NCBI GenBank assembly: GCA_034521515.1
Contig: JAXHMH010000002.1
Coordinates: forward strand, 88,379-152,378
Direction: 5' to 3'
Source: Candidatus Saccharimonadota bacterium
GTDB taxonomy: Bacteria; Patescibacteriota; Saccharimonadia; Saccharimonadales; JAXHMH01
DNA length: 64,000 bases
Part shown: piece after piece, positions 2,678 to 63,332 of the stretch
How positions within the stretch are numbered: position 1 is the first letter of the stretch
Layout of the letters: every line of letters starts with the position of its first letter
Notes under the pieces: model-generated
What the model saw: the letters and a program-made list of their open reading frames with translations, nothing else
What the model was told of the DNA's origin: nothing
Database searches by the model: none
Translations under genes and position numbers: made by a program

Positions 2678-2679
2678 AT

Positions 2680-3289: not shown

Positions 3290-3335
3290 TGAAAGAGGTA
3301 GGTGAGGGATTGATGGGGGCGAAAAGCTTGAAACC

Positions 3336-32904: not shown

Positions 32905-33741
32905 CTAGTTAGTAAAGCCGGCAATCAAAACCGCAACGCTAACGAACTGCAATCCATACGCAATCAAAATATAATTGCGCTCAACTACTGCATAGTCTTT
33001 CCAGGCACTACGGCGGCGGTTACTCAGCCACAAGTTCGCAAACAGCAGTACCAATCCGATTAACACAATACCCTGCACTGCATACACATGCCCCGCTAAA
33101 CTCTCAAATCCATAAAGCGTTGTTGCAAGCGTAGTGAATAATATCAAAAGCCACGGCAAAAACACCGCAAGAACCGACAATATATAGGCTGAAGGTACAA
33201 ACTTGCGAGCCTTTTCGTTTTGACGTTCGCTTAGCCACGCCAAACCGAAGCCAATCACCACAATACCAGAGATAAGCTTAAGGACAGCCACATCCGAAAT
33301 ACCGCTCAACATAGCGACAACGCTTGTCAGTAACCCCATAGTGACCGCCAAGTAAACCCAACGCCAAACATACACACGTTTAGTCATGGCCTTTTCGTAG
33401 CTGCTTCGCCATCTTGTCAAAAGTAACAGCGAATAAACCGCACTAACACCTAGCAACACGGCAAGTAACACGCGCAAATCTATGTCCATCAAGATGCGCT
33501 CAGCGCTTACGAGCGAGGCATCCTGTGAGTCAGCCAGTGGATTAGTTGTTAGGTAGCGTACCGTCCATGAGAAGTAAGTTGCTGCCATAAACGCCCACGT
33601 TACGACTATTGCAAGAATGCTGCCAATTAATGTTAGCCTATACAAGGTTCTCAATAATGTAACTGGCTGCTTGGTGCGCTTTGTAGAGGTTGGTTTCTTT
33701 GCCGTCTTTGTCTTTGCCTTAGTTGTTGTCTTCTTTGCCAT
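32905..33741 (-). CDS. polytopic membrane protein with Lys/Thr-rich N-terminus
   Basis: MAKKTTTKAKTKTAKK start preferred over the track start at 33849, which would overlap the upstream gene. About 7 TM helices. Confidence 0.55.
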   Translation of the reverse strand: MAKKTTTKAKTKTAKKPTSTKRTKQPVTLLRTLYRLTLIGSILAIVVTWAFMAATYFSWTVRYLTTNPLADSQDASLVSAERILMDIDLRVLLAVLLGVSAVYSLLLLTRWRSSYEKAMTKRVYVWRWVYLAVTMGLLTSVVAMLSGISDVAVLKLISGIVVIGFGLAWLSERQNEKARKFVPSAYILSVLAVFLPWLLILFTTLATTLYGFESLAGHVYAVQGIVLIGLVLLFANLWLSNRRRSAWKDYAVVERNYILIAYGLQFVSVAVLIAGFTN

Positions 33742-33778
33742 AATAAAGAGTGTACCATTTTCGTGATATTGTGAACAC

Positions 33779-34180
33779 CTAGCTGCCCCAAGAGTGTTCT
33801 TCAAGATGAGCCTGAAAGTACCCCAGTACCATTTGGGAAAAATCATCATCTAGACTCAGCTTCTTGGCCTTTTCACGCCAAAATCGCAGTACCATCTCAC
33901 CCCCGTCGGACAAATCTACCACACGAAATCTAGCACTGAGCACGTTTGTATCATATTCTCTTCTGCGAGTAAGCGAGCAGATCGCTTCTAGTGCCACGCT
34001 TTCATCGGTCAATTCGGCGTTAAATTTACGGTACTCGCGGCCGCCTTGTATATACGAGTAACCTTTCTCTGCTAACCTCTCGGCCAAAGCAAATCCCACC
34101 CGTGCTTCCTTTTGAATCTCGTCGACACTACCTGACGGCACTGCATCCAAAGCGAGCCGTTCGAGTTCACCCAAAACCAT
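33779..34180 (-). CDS. hypothetical protein (133 aa)
   Basis: ORF tightly packed after the LysRS gene. No family recognised. Confidence 0.5.
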   Translation of the reverse strand: MVLGELERLALDAVPSGSVDEIQKEARVGFALAERLAEKGYSYIQGGREYRKFNAELTDESVALEAICSLTRRREYDTNVLSARFRVVDLSDGGEMVLRFWREKAKKLSLDDDFSQMVLGYFQAHLEEHSWGS

Positions 34181-43733: not shown

Positions 43734-44141
43734 TCACAATTTTGGTAACGGAACACCGGTCTGCTTGCTCACTTGGCGTGCCCACTCAAACAGAGCCTCC
43801 ATTTGACGCTCAAGTTCAACTTTATCTTTGGCGGTCAGCACTTTTTTAGCCTGGATTTTGGTGATAATACTATAAATTTCTTTGATGTCACTCTCTACAC
43901 CCAGCAACCTATTGTCAATATTCGTCAACTTAGCATTCATCTCACGCATCTCGGCATGCAATGAGACGTTGTCGTTTTCTAGCCTGGTAAGCCGCCCGTC
44001 AATTTGCTCAAACCGCCGGTCTACTTGCTCGAACCGTTGGTCCACTTGGTCGAAACGCTTGTCCACAAGCGAAGCTAGGCTTTGGATAGCCTGCGCTATA
44101 TCATCAATATCGGTCGGCTTATTAGAACGCTCCTTAGTCAT
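43734..44141 (-). CDS. small coiled-coil protein, paralog of 48506..48748
   Basis: Repeats FDQVDQRFEQVDRRFEQIDGRL. The C-terminus EWARQVSKQTGVPLPKL resembles RWIHEIAKQTGVKLSEI of the paralog. TATACT lies 6 nt before ATG 44141, so it is leaderless; the track start is 44156. Confidence 0.65.
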   Translation of the reverse strand: MTKERSNKPTDIDDIAQAIQSLASLVDKRFDQVDQRFEQVDRRFEQIDGRLTRLENDNVSLHAEMREMNAKLTNIDNRLLGVESDIKEIYSIITKIQAKKVLTAKDKVELERQMEALFEWARQVSKQTGVPLPKL

Positions 44142-44270
44142 GTCTCTAGTATACATATACCCGGTGCCAAGATACTACTTTATTAGAAATAAAAATCTCA
44201 TTTATCCACATTCAAACAAGCAACAACCGTCAATCGCTTGAATGAAACTACACAGGTACTTAATACGATC

Positions 44271-44316
44271 AAATACTTTCAATTTATTGACGGCCGTCAA
44301 TAAATTGAAAGTATTT
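44271..44316. repeat. perfect 46-bp palindrome (23-bp arms, no spacer)
   Basis: AAATACTTTCAATTTATTGACGG|CCGTCAATAAATTGAAAGTATTT, followed by TTTTATTT on the + strand. Confidence 0.9.
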
Positions 44317-44397
44317 TTTATTTGTGGTTGTTGGTATTGGTGTCAGGAGTAGTTTGTGTGAGTGACTAAGACAACTAGTGGTAGCGGAGGGGGCAGA

Positions 44398-44463
44398 ATG
44401 TGCGGGGTGCGCTTGTCTGTCAATATGGCGGTCTCGGGCTTTGTAGTAATGCTGCGAAGATAG
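44398..44463 (+). CDS. candidate 21-aa hydrophobic peptide MCGVRLSVNMAVSGFVVMLRR
   Basis: GGAGG lies 7 nt upstream of the ATG, and the stop is 25 nt before a strong terminator. No other coding capacity lies between the palindrome and the terminator. Confidence 0.3.
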   Translation: MCGVRLSVNMAVSGFVVMLRR

Positions 44464-44488
44464 CTCGTACTTAATTGAGAGCAAATCT

Positions 44489-44519
44489 TAAACGCGCCAC
44501 TCGACTGGCGCGTTTATTT
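44489..44519 (+). terminator. intrinsic terminator, 31/31 identical to 36408-36438
   Basis: Same hairpin TAAACGCGCCACTCGACTGGCGCGTTTATTT. It sits in a divergent intergenic region, which implies a short + strand transcript ending here. Confidence 0.7.
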
Positions 44520-44627
44520 TACTCCTTGATTACTAAAAAATTTAGTTAGGTAGTACGGTGTTATTAATAAAGTTTTGACATGCAATTAAGGTAATTTATT
44601 GTGTTACAATAACCCCAAAGGACAAGC

Positions 44628-45542
44628 GTGATGTTGAGCCAGAAATCAAAACCAACATTTGTATCATTCAGGCGGGCTCTAAAGGGTATCTATAGACCGG
44701 GGTTAGTATTGCTGGGTCTGGTGTTTTGCGCTGGTTTATGGCCAGGTGTAGCCTTGGCTCAACTCACCCCACCCAGCGGCCCAAATAGCCCTAGTTCGCA
44801 GCGTCCGACACTAAGCCAAGTCTACGATAAGCTAACGACTGGCTCTGCCTCGCCAACCCAATCCGGATTCGTCGGACCAACCAGCGGACCAAGTAGCACT
44901 ACCATGCATAGCCTCAATGACTTAATGGCTCTCATGCCAGAAGTAGATGACACCAATTGCGCTCAGCCAAGTGACGTGATAGACGGCCAGACTTATTGGG
45001 GGTTATGTAGCACAGATTGGGGGCCACAGGTAGGGACGGCGAGTAGTGTGAATGATGATTGGCCAATTCGGTTAGCCGCTACAGGAAGCAGCAACAGTTT
45101 TGCCACTGGAGATGACGGTGATTTACAAATCGGGGTAACTACCAGTCCACGCTTTACAGATAACGGTGACGGTACAGTTACCGACAACATTACCGATCTT
45201 ATATGGCTTCAAGATGCAAACTGCAATGGCGGAAGAACTTGGTCAACGGCTGTTTCAGACGCGAACAATCTAGCAAATGGTAGCTGTGGGCTCACTGATG
45301 GGAGTAGTGCCGGCGATTGGCGACTACCAAATGTTCGGGAGCTATACAGCGTTCTCGACTTCGGACACTATAATCCAAGCATTGTGAGTGGCCATCCATT
45401 TACAAACTTACAAACCGACAGCTACTGGACTTCTACTACGCGCGCACCTAATACTTCCGATGCATGGCGTACAAGTATTACTTCAGGTGGGGTGGGTGCT
45501 AGGGATAAATCCTTGGGTGCTTTTGTCTGGCCAGTTCGATAA
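44628..45542 (+). CDS. secreted DUF1566 (Lcl C-terminal domain) protein
   Basis: Signal peptide, then FTDNGDGTVTDNITDLIWLQDAN, DWRLPNVRELYSV and YWTST motifs. Start GTG 44628 or ATG 44631. Confidence 0.75.
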   Translation: MMLSQKSKPTFVSFRRALKGIYRPGLVLLGLVFCAGLWPGVALAQLTPPSGPNSPSSQRPTLSQVYDKLTTGSASPTQSGFVGPTSGPSSTTMHSLNDLMALMPEVDDTNCAQPSDVIDGQTYWGLCSTDWGPQVGTASSVNDDWPIRLAATGSSNSFATGDDGDLQIGVTTSPRFTDNGDGTVTDNITDLIWLQDANCNGGRTWSTAVSDANNLANGSCGLTDGSSAGDWRLPNVRELYSVLDFGHYNPSIVSGHPFTNLQTDSYWTSTTRAPNTSDAWRTSITSGGVGARDKSLGAFVWPVR

Positions 45543-45589
45543 AAATCAAATTTTTTTATATAGTTACCCCTACTGATACGAGGTTAGGT

Positions 45590-46411
45590 TTACCTTACAG
45601 GAAGTACGTAGTTAGTGCTGGTTTTGGCAACAATTGGCGTGTAACCATCGCTGAAGCCAACGAGTAGAGCATTGTTTGCTCCAAAACTAACCGATGTCCA
45701 GTAATGTTGGCCAGATGCTACACTAGCAAATGGGTGACCTGAAGGTAACGGAGGATTCCACCTACTATAGTCAATCAAGCTTGTTAACTCGTATATATTA
45801 GGGAGTCTCCAGTCTCCAGCAACTGAACCATCACTGAGGCTGCAGGAACCACTCGCTAGGTTGTTGGCGTCATTGATTGCAGTTGCCCAATCTCTTGTAC
45901 CAAAACAATTAGCATGACGTAACCAAACTAAACCAGTTAGGTTGTCAGTTATCGTACCGTCGCCATTATCAGTAAAGCGTGGGCTGGTGGTTTCTCCTCT
46001 TTCTAAATCTCCGTCATCTCCAGTAGCATAACTGGTGGTTTGTCCGGTAGCAGCAAGCTTAACCGGCGTAAACGCTTCAATAGTCCCCGCTTCACACAAA
46101 CTCCAGTATGTTTTTCCGGACGTTACCTGGTTGCTCTCAGCGCAATCCTGATCGGCCTCTGGCAGCAGGCCGAATAACTCATCTAAGCTGCACATTGGGG
46201 TGGTGTCACCCGGGCCGGTGGTTGGTTCGGTGAAGGTTGCGACCATAGTACCGGCGGCTCCGGTTTGTAGGCGGTTGCATAAGTCATCTAGGGTGTAGCT
46301 TTGGCTGGATGGGTCGGTTGGTGGAGCTGGTGGGTTTAGGCTGGCAAACACGGCACCGCCAATACCAAGCAGTAGTACGGCAATCAGGATAGGGACTACT
46401 CGCTCTCCCAT
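45590..46411 (-). CDS. secreted DUF1566 (Lcl C-terminal domain) protein, convergent paralog
   Basis: FTDNGDGTITDNLTGLVWLRHAN, DWRLPNIYELTSL and YWTSV. The N-terminal region is also alignable with the 44628 gene. Confidence 0.75.
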   Translation of the reverse strand: MGERVVPILIAVLLLGIGGAVFASLNPPAPPTDPSSQSYTLDDLCNRLQTGAAGTMVATFTEPTTGPGDTTPMCSLDELFGLLPEADQDCAESNQVTSGKTYWSLCEAGTIEAFTPVKLAATGQTTSYATGDDGDLERGETTSPRFTDNGDGTITDNLTGLVWLRHANCFGTRDWATAINDANNLASGSCSLSDGSVAGDWRLPNIYELTSLIDYSRWNPPLPSGHPFASVASGQHYWTSVSFGANNALLVGFSDGYTPIVAKTSTNYVLPVR

Positions 46412-46530
46412 GAAGCTAAGTGTCTTTTTGATAGCTGTGGCTAGTGTTTGTATTAACCGTTTGATAGTGGCTCCACTGTCTTGCTGTCTTACTCTCTTGC
46501 CTACTTGCTTATGGTAGGTAGTATAGCAGA

Positions 46531-46622
46531 GGGAAGGGCTAGGGTGTAGGGGTTAGGGTGAAGACAGGGTGAAGGGTACAGGGTGAAGGGTTTAGGGTTT
46601 AGGGTTGTGTGGGGGTATGGGG
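46531..46622 (+). repeat. G-tract array: 13 runs of G3-5 in 92 nt, built from 7-nt units AGGGTNN
   Basis: 46541-46607 reads AGGGTGT AGGGGTT AGGGTGA (agac) AGGGTGA AGGGTAC AGGGTGA AGGGTTT AGGGTTT AGGGTTG. Confidence 0.9.
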
Positions 46623-46703
46623 TTTAGGAGTTAGCAGAAGCCCCTGGTTACGAAAACACACAACTACTCGCATGTTTGGTAGACTCTGCTTCTTTTTGCG
46701 CTG

Positions 46704-46738
46704 CACCCTACACTACACCCTGCACCCTATACCCTACA
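46704..46738 (+). repeat. inverted C-strand partner array (7-nt units CACCCTA CACTACA CCCTGCA CCCTATA CCCTACA)
   Basis: Read directly from the sequence. It abuts the rpmE -35 box. Confidence 0.85.
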
Positions 46739-46742
46739 TATG

Positions 46743-46771
46743 TTGACAACAACCTAACAGGGGTGTACACT
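46743..46771 (+). promoter_or_regulatory. rpmE promoter TTGACA-N17-TACACT
   Basis: Consensus -35, 17-nt spacer, about 95 nt upstream of ATG 46872. Confidence 0.6.
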
Positions 46772-46871
46772 GCACCGGTCTAAATTTATACAATGACGGT
46801 CGACTGCAGTTACGGCTCACTGCTAACCGGCCTAGTAATTAAGTAGCAATTAAGCAGCCAGGGATTTATAA

Positions 46872-47222
46872 ATGAAAAAAGATTTACACCCCAAGGACTA
46901 CCGCCCGGTCGTCTTTCAGGATTTATCAAATGGATGGTCGTTTTTGACACGATCCACTGCCCCAACCGAAGAAACCACTAAATGGGAAGATGGCAAAGAA
47001 TACCCTCTGATTAAAGTGCACATTAGCAGCGCTTCTCACCCATTCTTTACTGGTCAAGAAAAACTACTCGACGTCGAAGGTCGTGTAGACAAGTTCAAAG
47101 CTCGTTTTGCTGCCGCTAAAGACCGCCAGGAAGCTATGAAAAAAGCTGCTACCAAAGCAAAAACTCGCGCCGAAAAGAAAGAAGCTGAGAAGGAAGAGGC
47201 TGAAGAAACTACCGAAAAATAG
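46872..47222 (+). CDS. rpmE: 50S ribosomal protein L31, type B (no CxxC zinc motif), with Lys/Glu-rich C-terminal extension
   Basis: [17 protein letters not shown]...[24 protein letters not shown]. Confidence 0.9.
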
Positions 47223-47350
47223 TTGGTAGTGGACAGTAAAAGGTCGACATAGATAGCGAGTAGCGTTTAGCGCACAGGGATGAGTCAATAGTTCAGTGAT
47301 TTAATTTTGAGCTGGCCGTCAAAAAAACACCCCCTATTCCTCCCCCTTCC

Positions 47351-47420
47351 ACCCTAACCCCTAAACGCTATACCCTAGCCACCCACTAGACCCTGGCCCC
47401 TAAACCCTATACCCTATTCA
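47351..47420 (+). repeat. C-strand 7-nt-period array running up to the prfA start codon
   Basis: ACCCTAA CCCCTAA ACGCTAT ACCCTAG CCACCCA CTAGACC CTGGCCC CTAAACC CTATACC CTATTCA, then AT-ATG. Confidence 0.8.
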
Positions 47421-47422
47421 AT

Positions 47423-48478
47423 ATGGATCAAAAAGAACAACAACTACGAGCCGAGCTAGAAGAATCACGGGACAAGCTAACTGACCCGGAAATTTTTAGT
47501 GACCCAAAGTATCCAAAACTAGCTAAGCGCCAAAAGCACCTGGAAGACGTTCTTGCCCTGTTCGATGAGCGCAACCAGCTCACTGAGGCTCACGCACAAG
47601 CCACCGACATGGCCAGCGGCTCCGACCCAGAACTGGCGGAACTTGCTAAAAATGAACTTATGGAGCTGGAGCCTAAGTTGGCCAAAAACCAGGAAAAGTT
47701 AACTGAAGCACTCACTCCCAAAGACCCCAATGATGATAAAGACATTATTATTGAAATCAGAGCGGCAGCCGGTGGCGATGAAGCCAGCCTGTTTGCTGGC
47801 GAGTTATACCGTATGTACGTACGCTGGGCAGAAAATCATAATTATAAAACCGAGCTCATTAGCGAAAGCCCGTCGGACGCCGGCGGCTATAAAGAGATTG
47901 TCTTTAGTGTCCGCGGCGAGGAACCCTACCGCATGCTCAAATTTGAAGCTGGTGTACACCGAGTACAGCGCATCCCAGTAACTGAAAGTCAGGGTCGTGT
48001 ACACACCAGCACCGTGACGGTAGCCGTTATGCCCGAAGCCGAAGAAACTGATGTAGAGATAAATGAGGCTGATCTTAGAGTTGATGTCTACCGCAGCGGT
48101 GGCAAAGGCGGCCAAAGCGTCAACACCACCGATTCCGCGGTTCGTATCACACACATACCATCCGGGTTGGTTGTTGCTAACCAAGACGAAAAATCGCAGA
48201 TTAAAAACAAAGCCAAAGCGATAAATGTGCTGCGCGCCCGTTTGCTCCAGGCAAAAATTGATGAGGAACATCAGCAGCTATCCGATGCCCGCAAAAAACT
48301 AATCGGCAGCGGCGCGCGCAGCGAAAAGATCCGCACCTACAATTTCCCTCAGGATCGCATCACCGACCATCGCATCGGCTACTCACGCAGTAACATCCCT
48401 GCCGCCCTCAGCGGAGACATAGACGATCTGATTGAGCGGCTACATGCCGCCGAACACGAGCTTTTGAGTTCGGAATAA
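47423..48478 (+). CDS. prfA: peptide chain release factor 1
   Basis: PVT tripeptide ([14 protein letters not shown]) and GGQ ([11 protein letters not shown]). Confidence 0.93.
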
Positions 48479-48505
48479 ACCAGCTGTGGGTGGTACAATG
48501 GACTC

Positions 48506-48748
48506 ATGAGCGAAGACCAATTTACCAAACTATTCAAAGAGGTTCAGAAGGTCAATACTAGACTGGAAGCTCACGCAGAAGAGTCCAGACAACAACACCT
48601 GGAGATTAATGGTGCTATAGGTGATTTGGCTGGACAGATAAAAGATTATCACCAAGAAACGATATTGCTCGCGCGCAAGGTAGACCGCCTGGAGCGTTGG
48701 ATTCACGAAATCGCCAAGCAAACCGGTGTCAAGCTATCTGAAATTTAG
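48506..48748 (+). CDS. small coiled-coil protein (80 aa), paralog of 43734..44141, inserted between prfA and prmC
   Basis: Extended -10 TGGTACAAT lies 6 nt before the ATG, so it is leaderless. The C-terminus is shared with the paralog. Confidence 0.65.
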   Translation: MSEDQFTKLFKEVQKVNTRLEAHAEESRQQHLEINGAIGDLAGQIKDYHQETILLARKVDRLERWIHEIAKQTGVKLSEI

Positions 48749-48757
48749 ATTTAGACC

Positions 48758-49591
48758 TTGAAAACAAACGCTTTTTTAAACTCAGCCCAAGAGAAATTGA
48801 ACAACAACGGCATTGCCACTGCCCGATTGGACTGTTTAATTTTGTTAGAGGATGCAACTAACCAGAGTCGCTCGTGGCTGTTGGCACATCCAGAATATGA
48901 GTTGAAAAGTTATAAAGTTGAAAAGTTGAAAGATCAGATTGAGCGACGCGCCAACCATGAGCCCTTGGCATACATACGCGGTAAGTCAGAATTTTATGGC
49001 CGCGAGTTTATTATTAACTCGCACACCCTACAGCCTAGACCAGAGACCGAAACGATGCTTGAACTATTGTTCAAGCAAGTTGAAAGTAAAAAGTTAAAAG
49101 TAAAAAGTATTGTAGATGTAGGGACTGGCAGTGGATGTATTGCGATTACCGCTAAACTGGAAATGCCAGAGCTCGAGGTGTACGCGACTGATATCGATGA
49201 AAATTGCATAAAGACTGCCAGGCAAAATGCAAATAGCCTAGGTGCGGATATAAAGCTCCTCCACGGCAACCTCATAGAGCCAATGTTCAAACTTCAAACT
49301 TCAAACTTCAAACCATGCATAGTTGTAGCGAATCTGCCCTACGTTCCTGATAATCACACGATCAACCAGGCAGCCATGCACGAACCCAGACACGCTATTT
49401 TTGGCGGATCTGACGGACTAGACCTATACCGCGAGCTGTTTGACCAGCTTCAATCGCTGCCAAACCAACCAGCATTTATACTAACCGAAGCTTTGCCTCC
49501 GCAACATAAAACACTTCAAAATATAGCCAAAACTGCCGGCTATAACCTGCAGCAAACTCAGGATTTTATACAACTATTTAAGCAAGACTAG
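48758..49591 (+). CDS. prmC: release-factor glutamine N5-methyltransferase PrmC/HemK
   Basis: ARLDCLILLE N-domain and VDVGTGSG motif I. The catalytic tetrapeptide reads NLPY rather than NPPY. TTG start. Confidence 0.85.
   Translation: MKTNAFLNSAQEKLNNNGIATARLDCLILLEDATNQSRSWLLAHPEYELKSYKVEKLKDQIERRANHEPLAYIRGKSEFYGREFIINSHTLQPRPETETMLELLFKQVESKKLKVKSIVDVGTGSGCIAITAKLEMPELEVYATDIDENCIKTARQNANSLGADIKLLHGNLIEPMFKLQTSNFKPCIVVANLPYVPDNHTINQAAMHEPRHAIFGGSDGLDLYRELFDQLQSLPNQPAFILTEALPPQHKTLQNIAKTAGYNLQQTQDFIQLFKQD
49286..49313 (+). repeat. perfect (TTCAAAC)x4 heptanucleotide repeat inside prmC
   Basis: Read directly from the sequence. It encodes FKLQTSNFKP. Confidence 0.95.
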
Positions 49592-50796
49592 TTTTGCGGG
49601 AACTCGCCAAGCCTCACACTAATTGATTGTTCTTGACCATCACGAATTATGGTAAGCGTAACTTGTTCGCCGACTTGCAAACGGCCTATCAAAGACGCCA
49701 AACTATTGCTCCCGTCAATCTCCTCACTGCCGACATGAGTAATGATATCGCCTTCTTGCAAACCAGCTTCATCGGCCGGACTGTCGGCCATAACAGATGA
49801 CGGTTCGCCTTCTTCAGCCGGCACAATATAAGCGCCGCTGGTTACGTCTAAATCAAACTGTTCCGCCAACCCTTCGTTTAGCTGCACATACCGCACGCCA
49901 ATATAGGGGCGTTGCAACTCCCCTTCATTTAAGACGCTGGATATAAGCCCTTTTACATCGTCAATTGGTATGGAGAACCCGATACCCTCAGTTCCGTCGC
50001 CTCGCGCTACTGCTGTATTCACACCTATGACTTCACCTTTGAAGTTCACCAGAGGACCGCCAGAATTTCCCTGATTTATGGCTGCATCTGTCTGGAATAA
50101 ATTCTGCAGCGTGTCAGCTCCACGGCTGCCACCCGCTCGAACATTCCGACCAAAACCGGATATAATCCCTGATGTCACAGTATTTTGAAATTGCCCAAGC
50201 GCATTGCCGATAGCAATTACCCTATCACCTACCTGCACTTCGCCAGAATTACCTAGTTCAACTGGTTTTAGTTGATTGCCGCGTGCGTCATTAATTTTTA
50301 AAAATGCAATGTCCAGCGGGTCATTAGCACCCGTCCGGCCAATCACCTCCACATCATCGAGCTCTGTTCCGTCCGATAACGTCAAACTAACCTCAGCAGT
50401 TCCTTCTGGTACAACGTGCCGATTAGTCAATACCGTGCCATCTTCACTAATAATAAACCCGCTCCCTGCGCCGGCTTGCTGCCTGGTTGATGGCCCAAAA
50501 AATCCTAGTGAAGTTTGTTCAGTCACTACATGCACCGAGACAATGCTTTCGCCGACTTCGTCAACGATTTCACTGATTGCCTGTCCCTCGTTTACAACTA
50601 CTTCTTGTGCTGTCTGTGTCTCCTGATGCTGGCGGCTGCCAGAGGCCAACCACCCGCCCAAAAAACCAGCCGATGTACTCAGCAAAAACACTAGCCCAAC
50701 TAGTGCCAACTTGGCTCGATCAAAATTCAACATAAATTGTCTTGGTTCAGAACCCTTTGATTGCTTCATAAACCCCCTTTTAAAACCGCGTATCAT
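49588..50796 (-). CDS. htrA: HtrA/DegP family serine protease with PDZ domain
   Basis: TNRHV, catalytic GNSGGPLVN, C-terminal PDZ, and an N-terminal TM anchor. Confidence 0.88.
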   Translation of the reverse strand: MIRGFKRGFMKQSKGSEPRQFMLNFDRAKLALVGLVFLLSTSAGFLGGWLASGSRQHQETQTAQEVVVNEGQAISEIVDEVGESIVSVHVVTEQTSLGFFGPSTRQQAGAGSGFIISEDGTVLTNRHVVPEGTAEVSLTLSDGTELDDVEVIGRTGANDPLDIAFLKINDARGNQLKPVELGNSGEVQVGDRVIAIGNALGQFQNTVTSGIISGFGRNVRAGGSRGADTLQNLFQTDAAINQGNSGGPLVNFKGEVIGVNTAVARGDGTEGIGFSIPIDDVKGLISSVLNEGELQRPYIGVRYVQLNEGLAEQFDLDVTSGAYIVPAEEGEPSSVMADSPADEAGLQEGDIITHVGSEEIDGSNSLASLIGRLQVGEQVTLTIIRDGQEQSISVRLGEFPQN

Positions 50797-53963: not shown

Positions 53964-54830
53964 CTACTGGCTGGTTAATGTTTTAACGATACGTCGTAAA
54001 TCATCGTCGTTTTTAAAGTGAATCTCCAGCCTGCCGCCTTTGGCGGTATGTTTGAGCGTTACATCGGTTTTAAGTTTACTGCCAATCCGTTTTGTCTCCG
54101 GTGTGGTTGTAGAAACGCGCTTTACGGCCGCTTTCTGTGAACCGGCACTATTGCGGCTGCCCACAACATACTGCTCAGCCTGACGCACCGACCAACCATT
54201 TTTTAAAATCAGCTCTAGCAATTTCTGTTGTTTTACCGTGTCGGGCTTAAGTGCCAAAATTGCACGGGCATGACCTTCAGTAATTTTTTGTTGAGCCAAC
54301 GCATCGCGCGCTTTTTCAGGCAACTGTAACAGTCGCACAATATTATTTATGGTGGTAGCAGCTTTACCAAGCCGGCTGGCTATGTCTTTATAGTTCATAT
54401 TGAACTGCTGATGCAGTCTTTCTATCGAGACTGCTTGCTCTAACGGTGACAAATCAACTCTCTGTACATTTTCTATAAGTGCTACTTCTAGCTTCTCAAG
54501 CTCTGCGGCGTTTCTAATAACTGCTGGCACCCTGTCCAGCCCAGCAAGTTTAGCAGCTCGCCAGCGTCGTTCACCGGCAACTATTGAATACTTATTGTGT
54601 TCAATAGGGGTTACTATCAGAGGCTGCACAATACCGTAACGTTTTATTGAATCTGCTAACTCTTCTAGTGCAGTCTCGTCAAAATGTGATCGCGGCTGAT
54701 TTTTGTCCGGCGAAATATCAGCAATGAGTATATTTTGTATTCGTTCGCCTTCATTTATAAGGTTCTGGGTATCCAGACCTTTTGGTATAAGCGAATCGAA
54801 TCCACGGCCTAATCCGGTTTTAGCGCTCAT
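53964..54830 (-). CDS. parB: chromosome partitioning protein ParB
   Basis: GLGRGFDSLIP and GERRWRAAKLAG motifs. ATG 54830 overlaps the parA stop (ATGA). Confidence 0.9.
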   Translation of the reverse strand: MSAKTGLGRGFDSLIPKGLDTQNLINEGERIQNILIADISPDKNQPRSHFDETALEELADSIKRYGIVQPLIVTPIEHNKYSIVAGERRWRAAKLAGLDRVPAVIRNAAELEKLEVALIENVQRVDLSPLEQAVSIERLHQQFNMNYKDIASRLGKAATTINNIVRLLQLPEKARDALAQQKITEGHARAILALKPDTVKQQKLLELILKNGWSVRQAEQYVVGSRNSAGSQKAAVKRVSTTTPETKRIGSKLKTDVTLKHTAKGGRLEIHFKNDDDLRRIVKTLTSQ

Positions 54831-55588
54831 GCTACTGCCCTTTTTATTATTTCTTTTGTAAGCTGCTTGTAAGCACGAGCCCCGCGTGACCATTTATCAT
54901 GATCGGCAATTGTTTTGCCATAACTTGGTGCTTCAGCTAAACGGACATTTCTCGGAACCACTGTACTTAAAACTTTATCTCCAAAATGCTTTTTTAGTTC
55001 AGCTTCAACTTGACCGGACAAACTCGTACGTGCATCATACATTGTGAGCACCACACCAAGTATTGAAAGATTATGATTTAGCCCATGCCTTACTTGGTCT
55101 ATAACGCTAAGCAACTGGCTTAAACCTTCCAACGCATAATACTCGGCTTGAACCGGAATCAATACACTATCGGCAGCAGTTAACGCATTGACCGTAAGTA
55201 ACCCAAGCGATGGCGGACAATCTATCAATATATAATCATGGCTACATTTTTCGATTGCTCGTTTTAATAATGTCTCGCGGCTCAGCGTACCGACCATATC
55301 AACTTCTGCTGCAGCTAAGTTCGCGTTACTCGGCAGTACAAACAACCCATCGGTTTCAGTCTCAAGTATGGTTGACGCGGCATCCGCATTATCAAACAAT
55401 ACATCATATAAGGTTGAGCCGAGCGAATGTTTATCCAAGCCAAGTCCACTTGTAGCATTACCTTGAGGATCAGCGTCAACCACCAAAACTGTCTTGCCAG
55501 CTTTAGCTAGATAAGCCGCGACATTAATAGCCGTCGTAGTCTTGCCGACTCCACCCTTCTGGTTAATAACCGCAATAGTATGACTCAT
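54827..55588 (-). CDS. parA: chromosome partitioning ATPase ParA/Soj
   Basis: Deviant Walker A NQKGGVGKTTT. Confidence 0.92.
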   Translation of the reverse strand: MSHTIAVINQKGGVGKTTTAINVAAYLAKAGKTVLVVDADPQGNATSGLGLDKHSLGSTLYDVLFDNADAASTILETETDGLFVLPSNANLAAAEVDMVGTLSRETLLKRAIEKCSHDYILIDCPPSLGLLTVNALTAADSVLIPVQAEYYALEGLSQLLSVIDQVRHGLNHNLSILGVVLTMYDARTSLSGQVEAELKKHFGDKVLSTVVPRNVRLAEAPSYGKTIADHDKWSRGARAYKQLTKEIIKRAVA

Positions 55589-56591: not shown

Positions 56592-59500
56592 CTAGAATGG
56601 CGTATCCAGCGGCTGTTGCTCACCGCCAGTAAACGTTTTGCCGTGCCGTAAACGTTTAGACGGGTCAGATGTAAAGAATAGTGACAAGTCGTTTAGTGTA
56701 GGACCCCTGGTTACATCGTCTGGGTAACCGTATGTCTGCGAGCTATCTATGGTGATCGTAAAGTAAAAATATCTAGCAAAGTCAGTATCCGTACCCGTAC
56801 CGTCTAGCGGAACAAAATCTTCCGGATTGCCAAGTGTCACATCACCAAAATCAGTAGCAACACCCCAACTGTTATTGCTCGCTGTCGATGAACGATAGAT
56901 AGTTTGCCAACGAGCACCAATCGAGTTATCAACTCCGTTCATGAGCCATTTAGTCGGAAAAACATTGGTGTCTGTGTCTATCAACCGCGAATACCGTGCC
57001 ACCTGTGGTTGTGATTGCAAAGTAGCCGTGTAGTGCTGATTAGACGACAGGATAGTTGTGCCTGAGCTCGAAACTTCTCCGTCAATAGTAATGGAATCAA
57101 TCCCAAAATCGTTATGCCAAATATCGCCCGTACTACCGAGTGTAACAAGCAGGCGCAACTCCGTGGAGCTATCGCTAACGACGGAGGACAGGTCAAACGA
57201 TTCCTGATTCCACTGCTGTGTCCCACCAGTAGCAACATCCGGGCCACCCGACCCATACGTGGCCTGTGTTGTCCAGCCTCCACCATTTTCATTTGTTTGT
57301 ATCTGCACAGTTGCTAGGTTGCTATTGCCACGCTGGTTCCAATAGAATTCAATGTCCCAGTTGTGTGTTTCCGCATTGAGTGTCTTATTAAAGGTCATAT
57401 GAAAAGTATCCCCGCCTGCAGCTGGAGATGAAGCCTCTGTGTATACATAACCGTCAGGATTACCTCCTTGTCCTGAAGTCGGACCAACATCCACGGACGG
57501 AGTATCGTTGGTATCATGCGACCATGCTCGGTTAGTGCCTGATGAGTTTAAACCGTCGGTTCCATTATCAGAAACAAACGTCCATGCACCTTCGTCACCG
57601 TCGTTGTCTGCATCAAATGTGTATGTACCGTATGTCACGCTCTGTTGTATACAACCGCCTCCTAACATGTATAGCTTCCCTTCATCATAGGTGACTGCAG
57701 AACCGTAGCGTTCACCCTCATACTCAACGTTAGTTTGATACCATTCACCGATACCCGTCGGCTCATTGCCTGTCGCTATAGTAGTATTTGCACTAATAGG
57801 TGACACATAGGTGTTGTTTGTGCAGACATTTGCACTGGAGCGCCCGCCAACGATATACATAAATCCGTTAGCTGCAAACCCGTCTGCGCCGCTCACCGCT
57901 TGCGTTAAGTTTGTAGTAAACGACCAAGGATCAAGCGTCCCATCCGCGTTTATTTGCGTATATTGCACATCACTAAAATAGTTCGTACCATCATCCCCGC
58001 CTATAATGTATAAGTTATTCGCGTACGCGATGGTTGTAAGACCACTTCTAGCTACATCAAACGTATTTGCTTCGGTTGTCCATGTGCTTGCGATGTCACC
58101 GCCACTATTAAGCTGGGGCGAAACATAAACTGAGTCGCTTGCATTTCCAGTATTGTCTATACCGCCAGTAATATACAGACGATTATTCCATTGGGCAGCA
58201 CCAAGCTGTGAACGTGCGCCAGGCAAGCCATTTGTAGCAGCAGACCACGATGATATATCACCAGATGAAGGAGTGGCATAATACACCGATGATTGTGGAT
58301 CTCCAAGTGAGTCTATCTCCTCTGGGGAGGAGTAATACGTATTAGAGATTGGACGATCTTGGACATTCCCAGGTCGAGTCCAGCCAATTGATATATTGTC
58401 TCCGACACTACCCTCTTTGTAGTTTGCTTCAATATAATAAGGCACGCCGGCTGTTAGAGTTACTGGCGAAGATTCTTGGGATCCATACTTAGTCCATTCA
58501 TTCGGGTTTGTCCAGCCGGTAACAGACGCAATTACGCTAACATTGTCGGGGTTTAAATCCGTACTTAACCGTAATTCAGAACTATCGTCACTAGCTATCC
58601 AAAACGTATAATCGCCTGTGGTAGGCGGACATATAATTGCAGACAGCCGTCCGCCGAAATTATCTGCGATATTTGTCGGTCCCGCCAGATCGGAGCCGCT
58701 TAGCGTTTGTGTAGAATCTGGATTATCCGGAAAGCTTGGTTCGTTATACAAATCTGAAACAGCCGTCCCGCCGCCAATATCATTCCAGCGCTCAAATCGA
58801 GAATTTCCCGTGGTATTTCCACTACAGCTATCATCTCTACCGCCAACGTAGTACAGCGACCCCCCTGCCGACTCAAGCTGCCCCCAGGCTCGCCCTTCAG
58901 GTAAAGAACCGGTTGAGTCAGACCAACTCCCTATAGTACCATCCGGGCTAAGTTGGGCATATTGAACGTTATCTGTCGCCGCACTACCAGGGGTAGTACC
59001 ACCCGCTGCGTAAATATAACCACCCAGTACAGTGGCACTAGCTCCTATACGGCTATTAGCGGTAGCAAAATCTCCAGTGGATTCGGTATAGTCAGCAGTT
59101 GCTCCGGAGTTATTATTATAAATTTGGAATGTCTGTAGTGATGGCTCAAAGCTACTACAGCCACCAGGGCTAGCACCAACATTACAGCCACCGATCACGT
59201 AAGCATACGAGTTTGACACAACCATACTAAGACCCCAGCGTTGGTTAATCGTAACTACCGATTTATTGAACGTCCCAATAGAACCGTCACTAACATTGAC
59301 TTTAGCAAACTCGATATCCGGAATAATTGTCCCTCCGCCACCGTCCTCGTATCCTCCAACGGCATATAAGTAGCCGTTGTAGCCAAAGGCGTAGCCGCGC
59401 CGGCGCCCAATAGACAGTGTGTTTGGAGACTCAATCCAGCCAGAACCAGACACCGCCACAACGTCATTATTATCATCAAACTGGGCATATAAGACCGTGT

Positions 59501-62500
59501 CTTTGTCCACTTCTGTATCACTCACACCACCAATCAAGTATATATAGTTTGCATACACCGTACCTGAATGAATACCCAAACCCTGGCTGCCACCAGTGCT
59601 TGGATCGGAGTCCATCTGTAACTGACCAGCGGTCGAACAGCTAGCAATAGCACCACCTGTTTGAATATTGCATTTATATATACCGGTGCTGTACGTCGTG
59701 CAACCCGCCTGCGTGCTGTCTGTGCACCCCCCAAAGATAAATAGATTGCCCGGATTAGAGCCAGCTGAATCTGGGTTAGCCCTTGCATATGCGAAAGTAT
59801 ACGAAACATTCGCAGCCCCAGTACCAGTTAACGATTGAGATGCCCAGGCGCCTGATAAACTCCCGTCATCATTAACCGTGTTTCTAAATATCGTATTAGT
59901 GTTGCCACCGCCATCAAGCCCGCCCACAACGTAAATGCGGCTTTCAAACACTGCCACACCGGCGGCAGCGACACCTGTGGTGCCATTTATCCGGTTTGTG
60001 CTATCGACACACCAAGAACCATATGATGACCCACTGCATGTAGCTGGCTCCCGAAGCGTTCCATCTGGGCCAATAGAGACATATGCTATATTCCCAGATA
60101 CATCACTTGCACCAGGCGTAGATCCGTCACATGTGTAGTCCACGCAGCCGCCAATCACATATAGATACCCGTTAAGGACTACGCTCACGCTCAACATATG
60201 ACCAATCTGCCCCACAGCGTCACCAGGTGGCGGCAAGTCACAATCATACGGGTCACCACCCGTACAATTACCTGAACCGCTCGCTTCTGTAATACTTACT
60301 GTCGAGGCATCACCGTCCTGGTTGATATCACCGTAAATCATAGACGACGCTGCTGTCGTGCAACTCCCATCAACGGTACTCTGCACCATACAGCCTGATA
60401 CGCCATACAATGTATTCCGCCACGATACAAACCCATACCCCTGCCGCGTGTCCGTTACATTTAGGATGGTATTCCAATCCGTCAAACTACCATCAGCATT
60501 GATACTTGCCAGCTGAATATCATCCCGGGTGCTCGTACAGTAACCGCTACCGTTTGTCACCGAGCAACCTCCTGCTATATAAATATAGCCGCCCCATATG
60601 GTACTAAAGTTGCCGCCCCACGCCATGCGCGACGTACCAAATCCGTTGGTCTCTACCCAATCGTTCATTGTGCCATTACTATTGAGTCTTGTGTAATACA
60701 CGCTATCTTGCAGCGTGCCGCTACTATTACCCCCGAGCAGATACATACGGTCGTTATAGACCTCTACTGAGTGGTTATGACGCGCATTCGGCAACGATGT
60801 CATGCCCGCAGAAGTCCAACTACTGAGCGTACCATTAGGGTTAATATCGGCAAATTCAACAGTACTCACGCCACCACTCGCTGCATCTGTCTGACCACCG
60901 AGCAAATATATGCGGTTGTTGTAGGCTTTGGCGGCCGCAAATGTCCGTTCGCTGCTTAGACTAGTGTCCACATACCAGTGTTCCCAGTTATCCGGATCTG
61001 TGTCTGTGGGATGCCACAAGCTAGGCTCGCCATTGGCACCTAACTTTGCAATATAAACAGTGTCGGTGCGGGTATCGCTGCCATCTTGACCACCAAATGC
61101 ATAAAGAAAACCGTTATACGCGACGACTGATAATGCAGACCTTGGAGCTGGCAAGTTATATGCCGGATCGGTACACCACCCACTGCAAGCTCCTTCACCA
61201 GGATTTGGACTTTCTACTATACCTGTAACTGGATTGAATTTGGCCCAATAGACATTAGATTCACTTGCGCCTGTACTTACGCCTGATGAATATTGAATAA
61301 CGACTAAGCCAGATTCACCATCACTACCAGTGCTGCCAGACCCACCGCCTGACCCACCTATACCTGAGCCGTCCTGCAAAGCGTCACCATTATTTCCTGG
61401 AGTAGTACCACTACCAGCCGTATTGGTAGTACTTGAACCAGTAGTGTAGCTAGAGCCACCACCGCCACCACCGCCACCAGCATCTCCACTTGCAGATGCT
61501 GATCCACCGCCGCCTCCATATCGCCCGGAACCGCCGCCGCCGCCGCCAGCAACTCCAAGCCCAATATCAGCAAGACCGCCATCACCACCACTTGTTACAC
61601 CACCATTTCCTGTGCTTCCGTCATCACCTTGACCAGTACGCCCATCAGCGCCATCACCACCTGTCTCACTACTTCCAGCAGATCCGTCATTAAGCCCCCC
61701 TGTCCCGGCACTACCACCAGATGACGGGGTGCCGCCGCCACCACCACCAGCAGATGAAGAGTTGCCACCACCTATACCATTTGTGCCTCCTCCGGCGCCT
61801 CCGTTACCCCCAGCCGTACCAGAGGAGTTATCGCCACCACCACCGCCGGCGCCACCAGCACCGATAATCAGAGGAGTGGAACTCCGATATACACCACTAT
61901 AACCACCGCCACCACCACCATCCCCAGAGTAGGTTCTCGCTATGCCGCCGTCACCACCACCACCAACGCGCACATTTAACGTTTCACTGGGGGTTACCGA
62001 AACAGTCGACCTAGCAAAACCACCACCGCCGCCATTACCACCTGCACTTGCGCTACCACCGCCGCCACCGCCACCGCCGCCACCCCATGTGCTAATAGTC
62101 ACTTCTGTAATACCGGTTGGAACCTCGAAATCAAAACTACCAGGGTTGGTATAAGAACTAGCGCTCAGACCGGTTGTTCCTTTGCCACCAATAACATATA
62201 TATAACCACCAGCAACTGCCGTACCAGCCGCCCATCGCTCCTCATCAAGAGGCATGGTGTTTTGCCATTCGTCAAAACGTGCGCCAGTAGTGCTACCTTT
62301 CTGGATAAGCTCGTTGTCTACATTGAAGTCTATGTTTGTTTCATTGTTGCCACGCATCAGCTTACTAGCGGTTTCGATGTATACACTCGGGTCAATACTA
62401 ATTGGGTAGGTTGCAGTTTGGAGTTCGCTGGCGATAATCTTAAGTTCATTGCCACGGAGCTCAAACCGGGCTTGCGCCGGGCTAAGTTCTCGCTTGCCTT

Positions 62501-63332
62501 CTAAAATAAACGGCGCCGGGATACGAAACAATAACTGCTCTTTGTTGGCATTTTCTCTAGCATTTTTTAATAGTTCTGCATCCTTTTCAGAACTTGTGCT
62601 GACTTTACCAAGCAGTGTTGGGTCGGCACCATATACACCGATAGACCCATCATTTTCTAGGCGCATCTGAGTACCTTCCGGCAAACCAACGTCATAATCA
62701 AACGTCATAGTGTCACCCTGGTGGGTATGCAATATGATGTCCTCTTTTATGGCGCTCCCTTTTAATGTATAGACTTTGTGGGCATCCATTCCTTTAAGCG
62801 GATACACCACTTGGTTTACGTCTTTGCGCGGCATCCCGAGGCCAAACTTGGGCGTAAAGGTTATAGATACTTCATTCACCGGGTCGGTAATTGATGTGCC
62901 TTTTTGGGGATCGAGTGGCAAGGTTGCTATGAACTTCGGTGTACCGCTTTGCCCAACAGACGAACCAACAAACGGAGCGTAGCCTTTGTTGTATTCATAC
63001 ACACCGTTTTCTTCGTCCAGCTGGAGTTTCTCGCCATAACTTTCGACGGGGTCATCCAGCAGCGCACGAGCGTTGGCAGCAAGTTCATAGCTAGCGTCTT
63101 GTATGCGTGGGTTGATTAGTCCAAAGAACACGCTGAGCAGTATGAGCAACGCAAGCAATACGTAGCCGATACGTCGCAGTAGTGTGCGCTTCTTAAAGTA
63201 TTGATCTATGCGGTAGATGTCGCGGGGGACTTTTTGCCACATCAACACTCCCACCTCTTTGCGCCAACTGGAAATATGACGAAAGCTGCGGGCAAAAAAC
63301 TTGTTTTGGAACGGATTATTTCTTTTACCCAT
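56592..63332 (-). CDS. giant (2246 aa) membrane-anchored surface protein: glycine-rich domain, multiple Kelch-like repeat blocks, PA14 domain, MAM-like domain
   Basis: N-terminal TM IGYVLLALLILLSVFFGLI. Glycine-rich domain at about 61265-62120, ending GESGLVVIQY. At least 18 Kelch-type strands (YIYVIGG, LYAFGGQDG, IYLLGGQ, MYLLGGN, and so on). PA14 at about 58370-58810 (FERWNDIGGG...GDYTFWIASDDSSELRL...YYIEANYKEG). MAM-like at about 57080-57625 (TFDADNDGDEGAWTF...WHNDFGIDSITIDG). Confidence 0.85.
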   Translation of the reverse strand: MGKRNNPFQNKFFARSFRHISSWRKEVGVLMWQKVPRDIYRIDQYFKKRTLLRRIGYVLLALLILLSVFFGLINPRIQDASYELAANARALLDDPVESYGEKLQLDEENGVYEYNKGYAPFVGSSVGQSGTPKFIATLPLDPQKGTSITDPVNEVSITFTPKFGLGMPRKDVNQVVYPLKGMDAHKVYTLKGSAIKEDIILHTHQGDTMTFDYDVGLPEGTQMRLENDGSIGVYGADPTLLGKVSTSSEKDAELLKNARENANKEQLLFRIPAPFILEGKRELSPAQARFELRGNELKIIASELQTATYPISIDPSVYIETASKLMRGNNETNIDFNVDNELIQKGSTTGARFDEWQNTMPLDEERWAAGTAVAGGYIYVIGGKGTTGLSASSYTNPGSFDFEVPTGITEVTISTWGGGGGGGGGGSASAGGNGGGGGFARSTVSVTPSETLNVRVGGGGDGGIARTYSGDGGGGGGYSGVYRSSTPLIIGAGGAGGGGGDNSSGTAGGNGGAGGGTNGIGGGNSSSAGGGGGGTPSSGGSAGTGGLNDGSAGSSETGGDGADGRTGQGDDGSTGNGGVTSGGDGGLADIGLGVAGGGGGGSGRYGGGGGSASASGDAGGGGGGGGSSYTTGSSTTNTAGSGTTPGNNGDALQDGSGIGGSGGGSGSTGSDGESGLVVIQYSSGVSTGASESNVYWAKFNPVTGIVESPNPGEGACSGWCTDPAYNLPAPRSALSVVAYNGFLYAFGGQDGSDTRTDTVYIAKLGANGEPSLWHPTDTDPDNWEHWYVDTSLSSERTFAAAKAYNNRIYLLGGQTDAASGGVSTVEFADINPNGTLSSWTSAGMTSLPNARHNHSVEVYNDRMYLLGGNSSGTLQDSVYYTRLNSNGTMNDWVETNGFGTSRMAWGGNFSTIWGGYIYIAGGCSVTNGSGYCTSTRDDIQLASINADGSLTDWNTILNVTDTRQGYGFVSWRNTLYGVSGCMVQSTVDGSCTTAASSMIYGDINQDGDASTVSITEASGSGNCTGGDPYDCDLPPPGDAVGQIGHMLSVSVVLNGYLYVIGGCVDYTCDGSTPGASDVSGNIAYVSIGPDGTLREPATCSGSSYGSWCVDSTNRINGTTGVAAAGVAVFESRIYVVGGLDGGGNTNTIFRNTVNDDGSLSGAWASQSLTGTGAANVSYTFAYARANPDSAGSNPGNLFIFGGCTDSTQAGCTTYSTGIYKCNIQTGGAIASCSTAGQLQMDSDPSTGGSQGLGIHSGTVYANYIYLIGGVSDTEVDKDTVLYAQFDDNNDVVAVSGSGWIESPNTLSIGRRRGYAFGYNGYLYAVGGYEDGGGGTIIPDIEFAKVNVSDGSIGTFNKSVVTINQRWGLSMVVSNSYAYVIGGCNVGASPGGCSSFEPSLQTFQIYNNNSGATADYTESTGDFATANSRIGASATVLGGYIYAAGGTTPGSAATDNVQYAQLSPDGTIGSWSDSTGSLPEGRAWGQLESAGGSLYYVGGRDDSCSGNTTGNSRFERWNDIGGGTAVSDLYNEPSFPDNPDSTQTLSGSDLAGPTNIADNFGGRLSAIICPPTTGDYTFWIASDDSSELRLSTDLNPDNVSVIASVTGWTNPNEWTKYGSQESSPVTLTAGVPYYIEANYKEGSVGDNISIGWTRPGNVQDRPISNTYYSSPEEIDSLGDPQSSVYYATPSSGDISSWSAATNGLPGARSQLGAAQWNNRLYITGGIDNTGNASDSVYVSPQLNSGGDIASTWTTEANTFDVARSGLTTIAYANNLYIIGGDDGTNYFSDVQYTQINADGTLDPWSFTTNLTQAVSGADGFAANGFMYIVGGRSSANVCTNNTYVSPISANTTIATGNEPTGIGEWYQTNVEYEGERYGSAVTYDEGKLYMLGGGCIQQSVTYGTYTFDADNDGDEGAWTFVSDNGTDGLNSSGTNRAWSHDTNDTPSVDVGPTSGQGGNPDGYVYTEASSPAAGGDTFHMTFNKTLNAETHNWDIEFYWNQRGNSNLATVQIQTNENGGGWTTQATYGSGGPDVATGGTQQWNQESFDLSSVVSDSSTELRLLVTLGSTGDIWHNDFGIDSITIDGEVSSSGTTILSSNQHYTATLQSQPQVARYSRLIDTDTNVFPTKWLMNGVDNSIGARWQTIYRSSTASNNSWGVATDFGDVTLGNPEDFVPLDGTGTDTDFARYFYFTITIDSSQTYGYPDDVTRGPTLNDLSLFFTSDPSKRLRHGKTFTGGEQQPLDTPF

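Follow-up and report, generated by a model that had tools for sequence, protein, structure and literature searches.

Background

In Haemophilus influenzae, 7-bp repeats in promoters switch the hmw adhesin genes, i.e., they act by phase variation. Heptamers are reported to be the most abundant class of long simple sequence repeats (SSRs) in many prokaryotes, with polymerase-template interaction as a possible cause (Mrazek 2007, cited in PMC4679880). The heptamer repeats GGGAATC of Xanthomonas and GGGGA(C/T)T of Nostoc form G-quadruplexes (G4) in vitro, are located preferentially upstream of open reading frames (ORFs) on the non-coding strand, and also occur as inverted repeats that are potential stem-loops (Rehm 2015, PMC4692102). 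Their length and sequence differ between close species and a regulatory role could not be shown for them; in E. coli, the effects of G4 vary with strand and position (PMC4692102). Here we describe three arrays of the degenerate heptamer AGGGTNN, named A1, A2 and A3, in a 64-kb window (the whole stretch of DNA that was analysed) which forms part of a 706-kb NCBI contig from a member of the Saccharimonadales (Saccharibacteria/TM7). A1 and A2 lie between a divergently transcribed Lcl_C (DUF1566) gene and rpmE, the gene for ribosomal protein L31, and A3 lies between rpmE and prfA, the gene for release factor 1.

Judged by their letters, A1–A3 are a Saccharibacteria instance of the G-rich heptameric bacterial SSRs already described. 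They are located in a local tandem-duplication hotspot that is specific to this genome, rather than belonging to a dispersed element family.

Composition and anatomy of the arrays

The three arrays are real and lie far beyond chance expectation. With at most two mismatches allowed, AGGGTNNAGGGTNNAGGGT gave 11 matches in the 64 kb against 0.10 expected, and the scan for 7-nt periodicity and AGGGT beyond the locus that the original prediction had called for, run on the window, left all motif matches (11/11) inside A1–A3. Lag-7 autocorrelation identified six segments at 19/28 matches compared with 0.03 in shuffles, and Tandem Repeats Finder (TRF) reported period 7 in A1, A2 and A3, with periods of 7, 14 and 21 in A1, where AGGGTTT x2.9 matched at 100%. 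Runs of three or more G or C (G3+/C3+ tracts) number 13 in A1, 4 in A2 and 10 in A3, against clusters of at most 6 in shuffles, and G4Hunter peaked at 1.88, 1.24 and 2.28, respectively. At least four consecutive G3+ tracts, one per unit, are present in each of the three arrays, which gives all of them G4 potential. The heptamer organisation, the G4-prone composition, the inverted arrangement and the closeness to promoters, all claimed beforehand from the letters, were upheld.

A1 (46531–46622) has its G-rich strand on the + strand and contains ~13 units, which read AGGGA, AGGGCT, AGGGTGT, AGGGGTT, AGGGTGA, AGAC, AGGGTGA, AGGGTAC, AGGGTGA, AGGGTTT, AGGGTTT and AGGGTTG, then GGGGTAT and GGGG, with decayed units running on to ~46634. 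Its 13 G3-5 tracts on the + strand and its nine 7-nt units, counted as units beginning AGGG, agree with the original prediction, while the loops, put there at 1–7 nt, read as 2–8 nt. A2 (46704–46738) has its G-rich strand on the − strand (AGGGTAT, AGGGTGC, AGGGTGT, AGTGT, AGGGTGC) and is indeed, as proposed, a complement-type array abutting the −35 box of rpmE, since it ends 4 nt before TTGACA. A3, also with its G-rich strand on the − strand, contains ~12 units (AGGGTAT, AGGGTTT, AGGGGCC, AGGGTCT ... AGGGTAT, AGCGTTT, AGGGGTT, AGGGTGG ...). It had been placed at 47351–47420 as a C-type array reaching the prfA ATG, which is right as to type and end point, but its extent is larger, namely 47330–47420 with 10 C tracts. 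A decayed G-type partner of A3, which we call A3', was found at 47254–47279 on the + strand (TAGCGAG, TAGCGTT, TAGCGCA, CAGGG); it is 73% complementary to 47352–47377 and includes a perfect 10-bp match (TAGCGTTTAG / CTAAACGCTA). With A3' included, the order on the + strand is the same in both pairs, i.e., G-type array, spacer, C-type array, gene.

The core and the spacer bases of the units behave differently. Of 16 seven-nt units, 12 have T at position 5, and positions 6–7 carry 0.24–0.41 bits, which is almost random, while positions 1–4 are fixed by the choice of parsing. Within the in-register run 46566–46609 there are 0 changes at 30 core positions, whereas both NN positions vary. Whole arrays show 73–78% matches with many different NN pairs, and repetition is perfect only in short sub-runs (46587–46606). 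The pairs A1/A2 and A3'/A3 have only the heptamer core in common. The complementarity of A1 and A3, ~71%, is what matching 5/7 core bases would give, the sole exception being one shared 13-nt block, and A1/A3 as specific inverted repeats flanking rpmE were rejected because the heptamer core explains this value.

Comparison with described heptameric repeats

Like the repeats of Rehm 2015, A1–A3 consist of tandem, intergenic 7-nt units with one G3(-4) tract each, and they share with them a strand and position bias upstream of ORFs, inverted copies and variability. In 3/3 arrays an ORF begins a short way downstream and has the G strand as its non-coding strand, and variation in length and sequence between close relatives was found for A2. 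However, the repeats of Rehm 2015 are near-perfect, abundant genome-wide and preferentially made of four units, whereas in A1–A3 the NN bases vary from unit to unit, the number of units ranges from 5 to ~13 and the 64 kb contain a single such locus. Nor do A1–A3 show the perfect or near-perfect repetition of a single unit that marks the described class. Furthermore, the described repeats are rarer than expected between divergent ORFs, the very setting of A1 and A2.

Two further classes can be compared. Long SSRs with units of 5–11 nt and the heptamer repeats of cyanobacteria have in common with this locus a favoured non-triplet period of 7, a sporadic distribution among lineages and polymerase slippage as the proposed origin (Mrazek 2007, summarised in PMC4679880); unlike the perfect or near-perfect runs in genome-wide excess that are described there, the repeats here form a single 3-kb hotspot which mixes unrelated units of 7, 8, 11 and 15 nt. 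The TAACTGA repeats of Beggiatoaceae and cyanobacteria are likewise located a few nucleotides upstream of starts, including those of ribosomal protein genes, and Shine-Dalgarno (SD) sequences are rare in their spacers, as they are at this locus (MacGregor 2015, PMC4679880). Unlike A1–A3, they are not G-rich, comprise 2–6 perfect copies and occur at ~170 loci per genome, with translational regulation proposed (PMC4679880).

Heptamer arrays are also present in viral contigs. In IMG/VR, arrays with an AGGGT core were found in 68 contigs, with a GAGGT core in 77 and with an AGTGG core in at least 120; as composition-matched cores are as common or commoner, the AGGGT motif itself is not special. 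Sorted by period, the AGGGT core occurred in 68 contigs at period 7, in 39 at period 8 and in at least 120 at period 6. A C-rich partner was located at most 150 nt downstream in 8/49 viral heptamer arrays and upstream in 1/49, which is the polarity of the window, and some of these arrays are followed by T-runs. Searching the literature for the repeat strings themselves retrieved nothing but Candida primer sequences, which are unrelated.

A second assembly and the repeat hotspot

The sole other assembly of the organism, a contig of 3287 nt from Logan run SRR26473340 (L001), matches the window exactly over 46736–49979 (~3.2 kb). The two differ by three substitutions and a 5-nt indel, all within 46699–46735, i.e., in A2 and the bases just before it, and this single comparison is the one on which array variation between relatives rests. 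The A2 of L001 carries the 19-mer AGGGTACAGGGTGAAGGGT, which is A1 46573–46591 in inverted orientation, and the shared 19-mer suggests copying between the inverted arrays. L001 starts at window position 46688, within the unique sequence that separates A1 from A2 and in which no 31-mer is repeated, and this contig end may reflect either a heterogeneous population at A1 or a drop in coverage over the G-rich array.

The original prediction had described a dispersed family of arrays across coding and non-coding DNA, but no strong period-7 or period-8 segment was seen in the 64 kb outside one 2.9-kb stretch, 46473–49324. TRF reported 9 loci in 46412–49591, a density of 2.8 per kb; the remainder of the window has 0.49 per kb, and 20 relatives have 0.60 per kb inside the operon and 0.51 per kb outside. 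Beside A1, the 5' leader region of DUF1566 holds a period-8 repeat, CTGTCTTG x3.1 (46476–46500), and the rpmE leader an 11-nt tandem duplication, TAGCAATTAAG x2.4 (46833–46858, +), identified by TRF. Heptamer arrays had also been claimed inside prmC. Period-7 arrays do exist there, but with units unrelated to those of A1–A3, namely TTCAAAC and AAAGTAA, next to the equally unrelated octamer AGTTAAAA. The octamer is repeated x4 at 48900–48931 (+), AAAGTAA forms a period-7/14 repeat x3.9 at 49077–49109 (+) in a linker of variable length, and a perfect TTCAAAC x4 occupies 49286–49313 (+) in a variable-length loop; the prmC repeats are located in loops whose length differs among orthologues. Three further copies of TTCAAAC would lengthen prmC by 21 nt with no loss of frame, whereas a change of one or two units would shift it.

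No such arrays were found at ~30 Saccharibacteria loci with rpmE-prfA-prmC synteny, nor at 4 more loci, and their absence in relatives marks the arrays as young and lineage-specific. Across 278 kb of relatives there were 2 lag-7 segments at the threshold where the 3-kb region has six. The relatives keep the rpmE promoter though they are array-free, and their rpmE-prfA spacers measure 56–110 nt and mostly contain a visible hairpin with a T-run, then TATACT. The five window proteins present in the protein collection all form singleton 90% clusters, an exact scan of the Joint Genome Institute (JGI) metagenomes with the rpmE promoter gave no match, and the DUF1566 protein has no further record besides the window.

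Origin of the arrays

We consider it probable, if by no means assured, that A1–A3 are G4-prone heptameric SSRs which were made and reshuffled by slippage and inter-array copying within a genome-specific tandem-duplication hotspot. Each AGGGTNN unit supplies one G3 tract, and the G strand can therefore form G-quadruplexes and the C strand i-motifs. The arrays would have arisen in this lineage and would still be undergoing remodelling, through slipped-strand mispairing in steps of 7 and 14 nt and, because they are inverted, possibly by copying from one array to another. The hotspot in which this would take place extends from 46.47 to 49.32 kb and spans the DUF1566-rpmE and rpmE-prfA spacers as well as prmC. 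Since the gene directly downstream uses the G strand as template in each case (DUF1566 for A1, rpmE for A2 and prfA for A3), any effect of the arrays might fall on the opening or usage of promoters or on a C-rich leader devoid of an SD, and would shift as the arrays change; any such promoter or leader effect would be secondary.

Several observations weigh against this account. Purely neutral slippage does not account for an AGGGT core that is kept beside freely varying spacer bases, a contrast in keeping with selection acting on the G tracts or a binding motif. In addition, slippage can only duplicate or delete units, which means that the three substitutions need another process (conversion or hypermutation). 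A1 is known from one assembly only, and the DNA examined is 64 kb of a 706-kb contig, which bounds any statement on abundance in the genome. Lastly, relatives in which the operon has the same head-on orientation show no repeat excess, so that orientation fails to explain the hotspot.

If the arrays do have this ordinary origin, they add an example from the Candidate Phyla Radiation (CPR; Saccharibacteria) to the little-studied G-quadruplex-prone heptamer repeats. It would also follow that arrays of this kind can change faster than any other sequence of a locus that is otherwise clonal, and they could be a useful strain marker, and, as the contig broke beside the arrays, they are a warning for assembly. 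The contrast between core and spacer, together with at least nine tandem duplications in 3 kb at essential translation genes, bears on the question of selection versus mutational by-product for bacterial G4-forming repeats.

Promoters and start codons

The −10-like hexamer TATACT of the divergent DUF1566 gene, read from the sequence at 46520–46525 on the − strand, is located directly downstream of A1, in line with the earlier placement of A1 just upstream of this box on the − strand. For rpmE, the sole promoter-like site in the region is a predicted TTGACA-17-TACACT at 46743–46771 on the + strand, which aligns with the TTGACC...AACAGAGGTG..TATACT promoters of the relatives. A1 and A2 are ~120–135 nt away from their respective start codons, while A3 occupies the last 90 nt of the rpmE-prfA spacer and stops just before the prfA ATG (47423). 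The lack of an SD in front of prfA had been put down to A3, but several array-free relatives with short spacers also have no SD before prfA.

The rpmE leader has a feature of its own. A conserved GACTGC-hairpin-GCTAACC motif (46795–46830) in the ~100-nt leader is common to this genome and six relatives (L004, L008, L009, L011, L348 and L349), and 5/9 predicted pairs of the hairpin are kept through two-sided changes in at least one sequence. The motif had no Rfam match, and in other relatives the promoter is ~10 nt from the rpmE ATG and the leader is absent. We regard it as a candidate L31 autoregulatory leader.

Alternative explanations

The position of the arrays raises the question of whether they are selected cis-regulatory elements, acting as G4 or i-motif structures of the template and non-template strands or as an array for an AGGGT/ACCCT-binding protein, that set the transcription of DUF1566, rpmE and prfA. 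The units preserve AGGGT but vary in the 2-nt spacer, G4Hunter values are 1.9–2.3, and the arrays abut or overlap promoter elements; on the other hand, the motif is found at no other promoter in the 64 kb, and relatives use the same conserved rpmE promoter without arrays. The strand relation is the same in 3/3 arrays, but as the arrays form two inverted pairs, chance alone would give such agreement about half the time. Likewise, the class of Rehm 2015 has the same position bias and G4 effects in E. coli depend on strand and position, yet a regulatory role was not demonstrable for this closest known class (PMC4692102). As the arrays moreover differ between two otherwise identical assemblies, we think this explanation unlikely, though one to be kept in mind. 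Of the four explanations raised by the original prediction, a G4 or H-DNA structure and a protein-binding array are the two that may apply.

A second proposal is that A1 and the adjoining octamer repeat form a contingency (phase-variation) tract, in which gain or loss of units would turn expression of the Lcl_C/DUF1566 surface protein on or off. The tract is located upstream of a gene for a secreted or surface-type product in a lineage-specific insertion, and SSRs are present in both promoter and 5' leader. As with the hmw SSRs, a heptamer tract precedes a surface-protein gene and there is variation between strains; unlike them, which are perfect and have documented changes in copy number and expression, the units here are degenerate and housekeeping genes are flanked too. 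Perfect sub-runs (AGGGTTT x2.9) could slip, but degenerate units lower slippage rates, and although the sister array A2 is polymorphic, A1 is known from a single sequence and equivalent arrays precede the housekeeping genes rpmE and prfA. A1 is situated upstream of the −10, not between promoter hexamers nor in coding sequence, and in none of A1–A3 would the number of units alter promoter spacing or frame, as A1 and A2 are upstream of the −10 and −35 and A3 is outside coding sequence; the perfect TTCAAAC x4 of prmC, which could shift the frame, is another repeat. We therefore hold such a switch to be improbable.

Just as doubtful is a broader conjecture, in which a locus-restricted process keeps the G3 cores, scrambles the spacers and copies between inverted arrays, so that G4/i-motif arrays would serve as a fast-evolving switch coupling the Lcl_C/DUF1566 host-interaction surface protein with L31, RF1 and PrmC in a reduced-genome epibiont.

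The arrays could also act in RNA, either with G-type and C-type arrays pairing into a long hairpin that would serve as terminator, processing site or attenuator, or with a C-rich Rho-loading site in the rpmE-prfA transcript. Indeed, 46520–46750 on the + strand is moderately more stable in folding than shuffles (z = −3.4), but A1 and A2 are located upstream of both divergent promoters, and as such no known transcript covers them. The sense strand of A3 is C-rich and G-poor, but the rpmE-prfA spacer folds no better than shuffles (z = −0.40), a value on which a hairpin or terminator in this spacer was rejected. Viral arrays more often have their C-rich partner downstream than upstream (8/49 versus 1/49) and some have T-runs; here, no T-run follows A2 or A3 and there is no terminator-like site on the + strand of the region. 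Rfam had no match for 46380–47460 at E up to 5 and none for the whole window at gathering thresholds, and no transfer or transfer-messenger RNA was found in the window alongside this search. An RNA element is thus very improbable.

Collisions between replication and transcription were considered as a source of clustered indels and duplications in rpmE-prfA-prmC, and are given an equally slight chance. GC skew at third codon positions (GC3 skew), taken in coding orientation, is positive (+0.089) in genes of the − strand and negative (−0.158) in those of the + strand, meaning that the + strand is C-rich whatever the gene direction and that the operon, with the + strand lagging, is transcribed head-on to replication. 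A total of 49/57 genes are on the − strand and parAB are nearby (parB and parA at 53964–55588), and the window is probably near the replication origin, with the origin to its right. Head-on conflicts are reported to yield indels from cis-regulatory into coding regions and promoter substitutions (Sankar 2016, reviewed in PMC7451550), and the genes that contain the two weak lag-7 sites (2584 and 12102) are on the + strand as well. However, the 20 relatives have the same operon orientation relative to their neighbours with 0.60 versus 0.51 TRF loci per kb, and given that lack of a repeat excess, collision could at most be a contributing factor which needs a lineage-specific extra.

A mobile or templated origin, whether by a repetitive extragenic palindromic (REP) or miniature inverted-repeat transposable element (MITE)-like element with array termini or by telomerase-like/reverse-transcriptase repeat addition, is scarcely credible: the inverted arrangement of A1/A2 and A3'/A3 and some units that equal the plant-type telomere repeat TTTAGGG speak for it, but the array spacers are unique (on which MITE/REP was rejected) with no second copy of them or of the motif clusters anywhere in the window or in the 2.9 Mb of loci retrieved, the two pairs share the heptamer core alone with arms matching ~71%, the arrays are internal between conserved genes with heterogeneous, degenerate units, and Pfam scans of the window ORFs gave no transposase, integrase or reverse transcriptase, so that neither the REP-like elements nor the templated repeat addition raised by the original prediction is borne out.

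Gene context and other features of the window

The organism has a GC content of ~46% and a small genome, and its PrfA shares at most 74% identity with any species representative and at most 77% among 5.8 billion proteins. The gene identities first read around the arrays agree with Pfam. The Lcl_C/DUF1566 gene downstream of A1 (45590–46411, −) encodes a secreted or surface-type product and is preceded in the window by a first paralogue (44628–45542, +); rpmE (46872–47222, +; Pfam L31), prfA (47423–48478, +; Pfam RF-1) and prmC (48758–49591, +; Pfam PrmC) follow, with an 80-aa coiled-coil ORF between prfA and prmC and an htrA-like gene on the − strand beyond prmC. L348, the closest contig with extended flanks, has rpsB and rpmE side by side in divergent orientation, separated by 367 nt (4206–4572 of that contig). 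Relative to it, the window has three genes inserted between rpsB and rpmE (43734–46411), namely a coiled-coil protein gene with 21-nt coding repeats (43992–44066) and the two convergent Lcl_C/DUF1566 paralogues, which are 49% identical to each other. The 80-aa ORF has only a C-terminal motif (..AKQTGV.L..) in common with the inserted coiled-coil protein, and relatives carry other, unrelated genes at its position in the prfA-prmC interval. A perfect 46-nt palindrome, AAATACTTTCAATTTATTGACGG|CCGTCAATAAATTGAAAGTATTT, then a T-run, is located at 44272–44317 between the divergent coiled-coil gene and the first DUF1566 gene.

Further arrays had been reported at 2589–2637 and 12116–12143. Neither site has AGGGT/ACCCT motif matches, and the maximum there, 17/28 at lag 7, is at noise level, as shuffles already yield 1.4 such segments per window. 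The inverted pair at 2589/3294 is a real inverted repeat, but it is of another kind and not an AGGGT array. Here, a gene with a PaaX_M/Cas2-like domain (ORF 2518–3282) is flanked by a 50-nt inverted repeat, 74% complementary, with arms at 2629–2678 and 3259–3308 that are 580 nt apart. Each arm contains a self-complementary box (TCAATAAAT..GCTATAGC..TTTATTGA), and the arms extend into C-rich sequence on the left (2572–2630) and G-rich sequence on the right (3293–3330), with G4Hunter values of 2.08 and 1.6. The arrangement looks like a paired operator or cassette boundaries. ORF 11488–12849, earlier read as a methyltransferase gene, has a weak N6_N4_Mtase match (E = 1.6e-6, 28.7 bits against a cut-off of 26.7); as listed it overlaps its − strand neighbour by 140 nt, and its true start is probably later.

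Elsewhere in the window, a heliorhodopsin-family gene is located at 32905–33849 (Pfam E = 3.6e-25), and 56592–63332 encodes a Kelch/PA14 repeat protein of 2246 aa, whose gene contains several coding repeats of triplet period at 61.3–62.1 kb.

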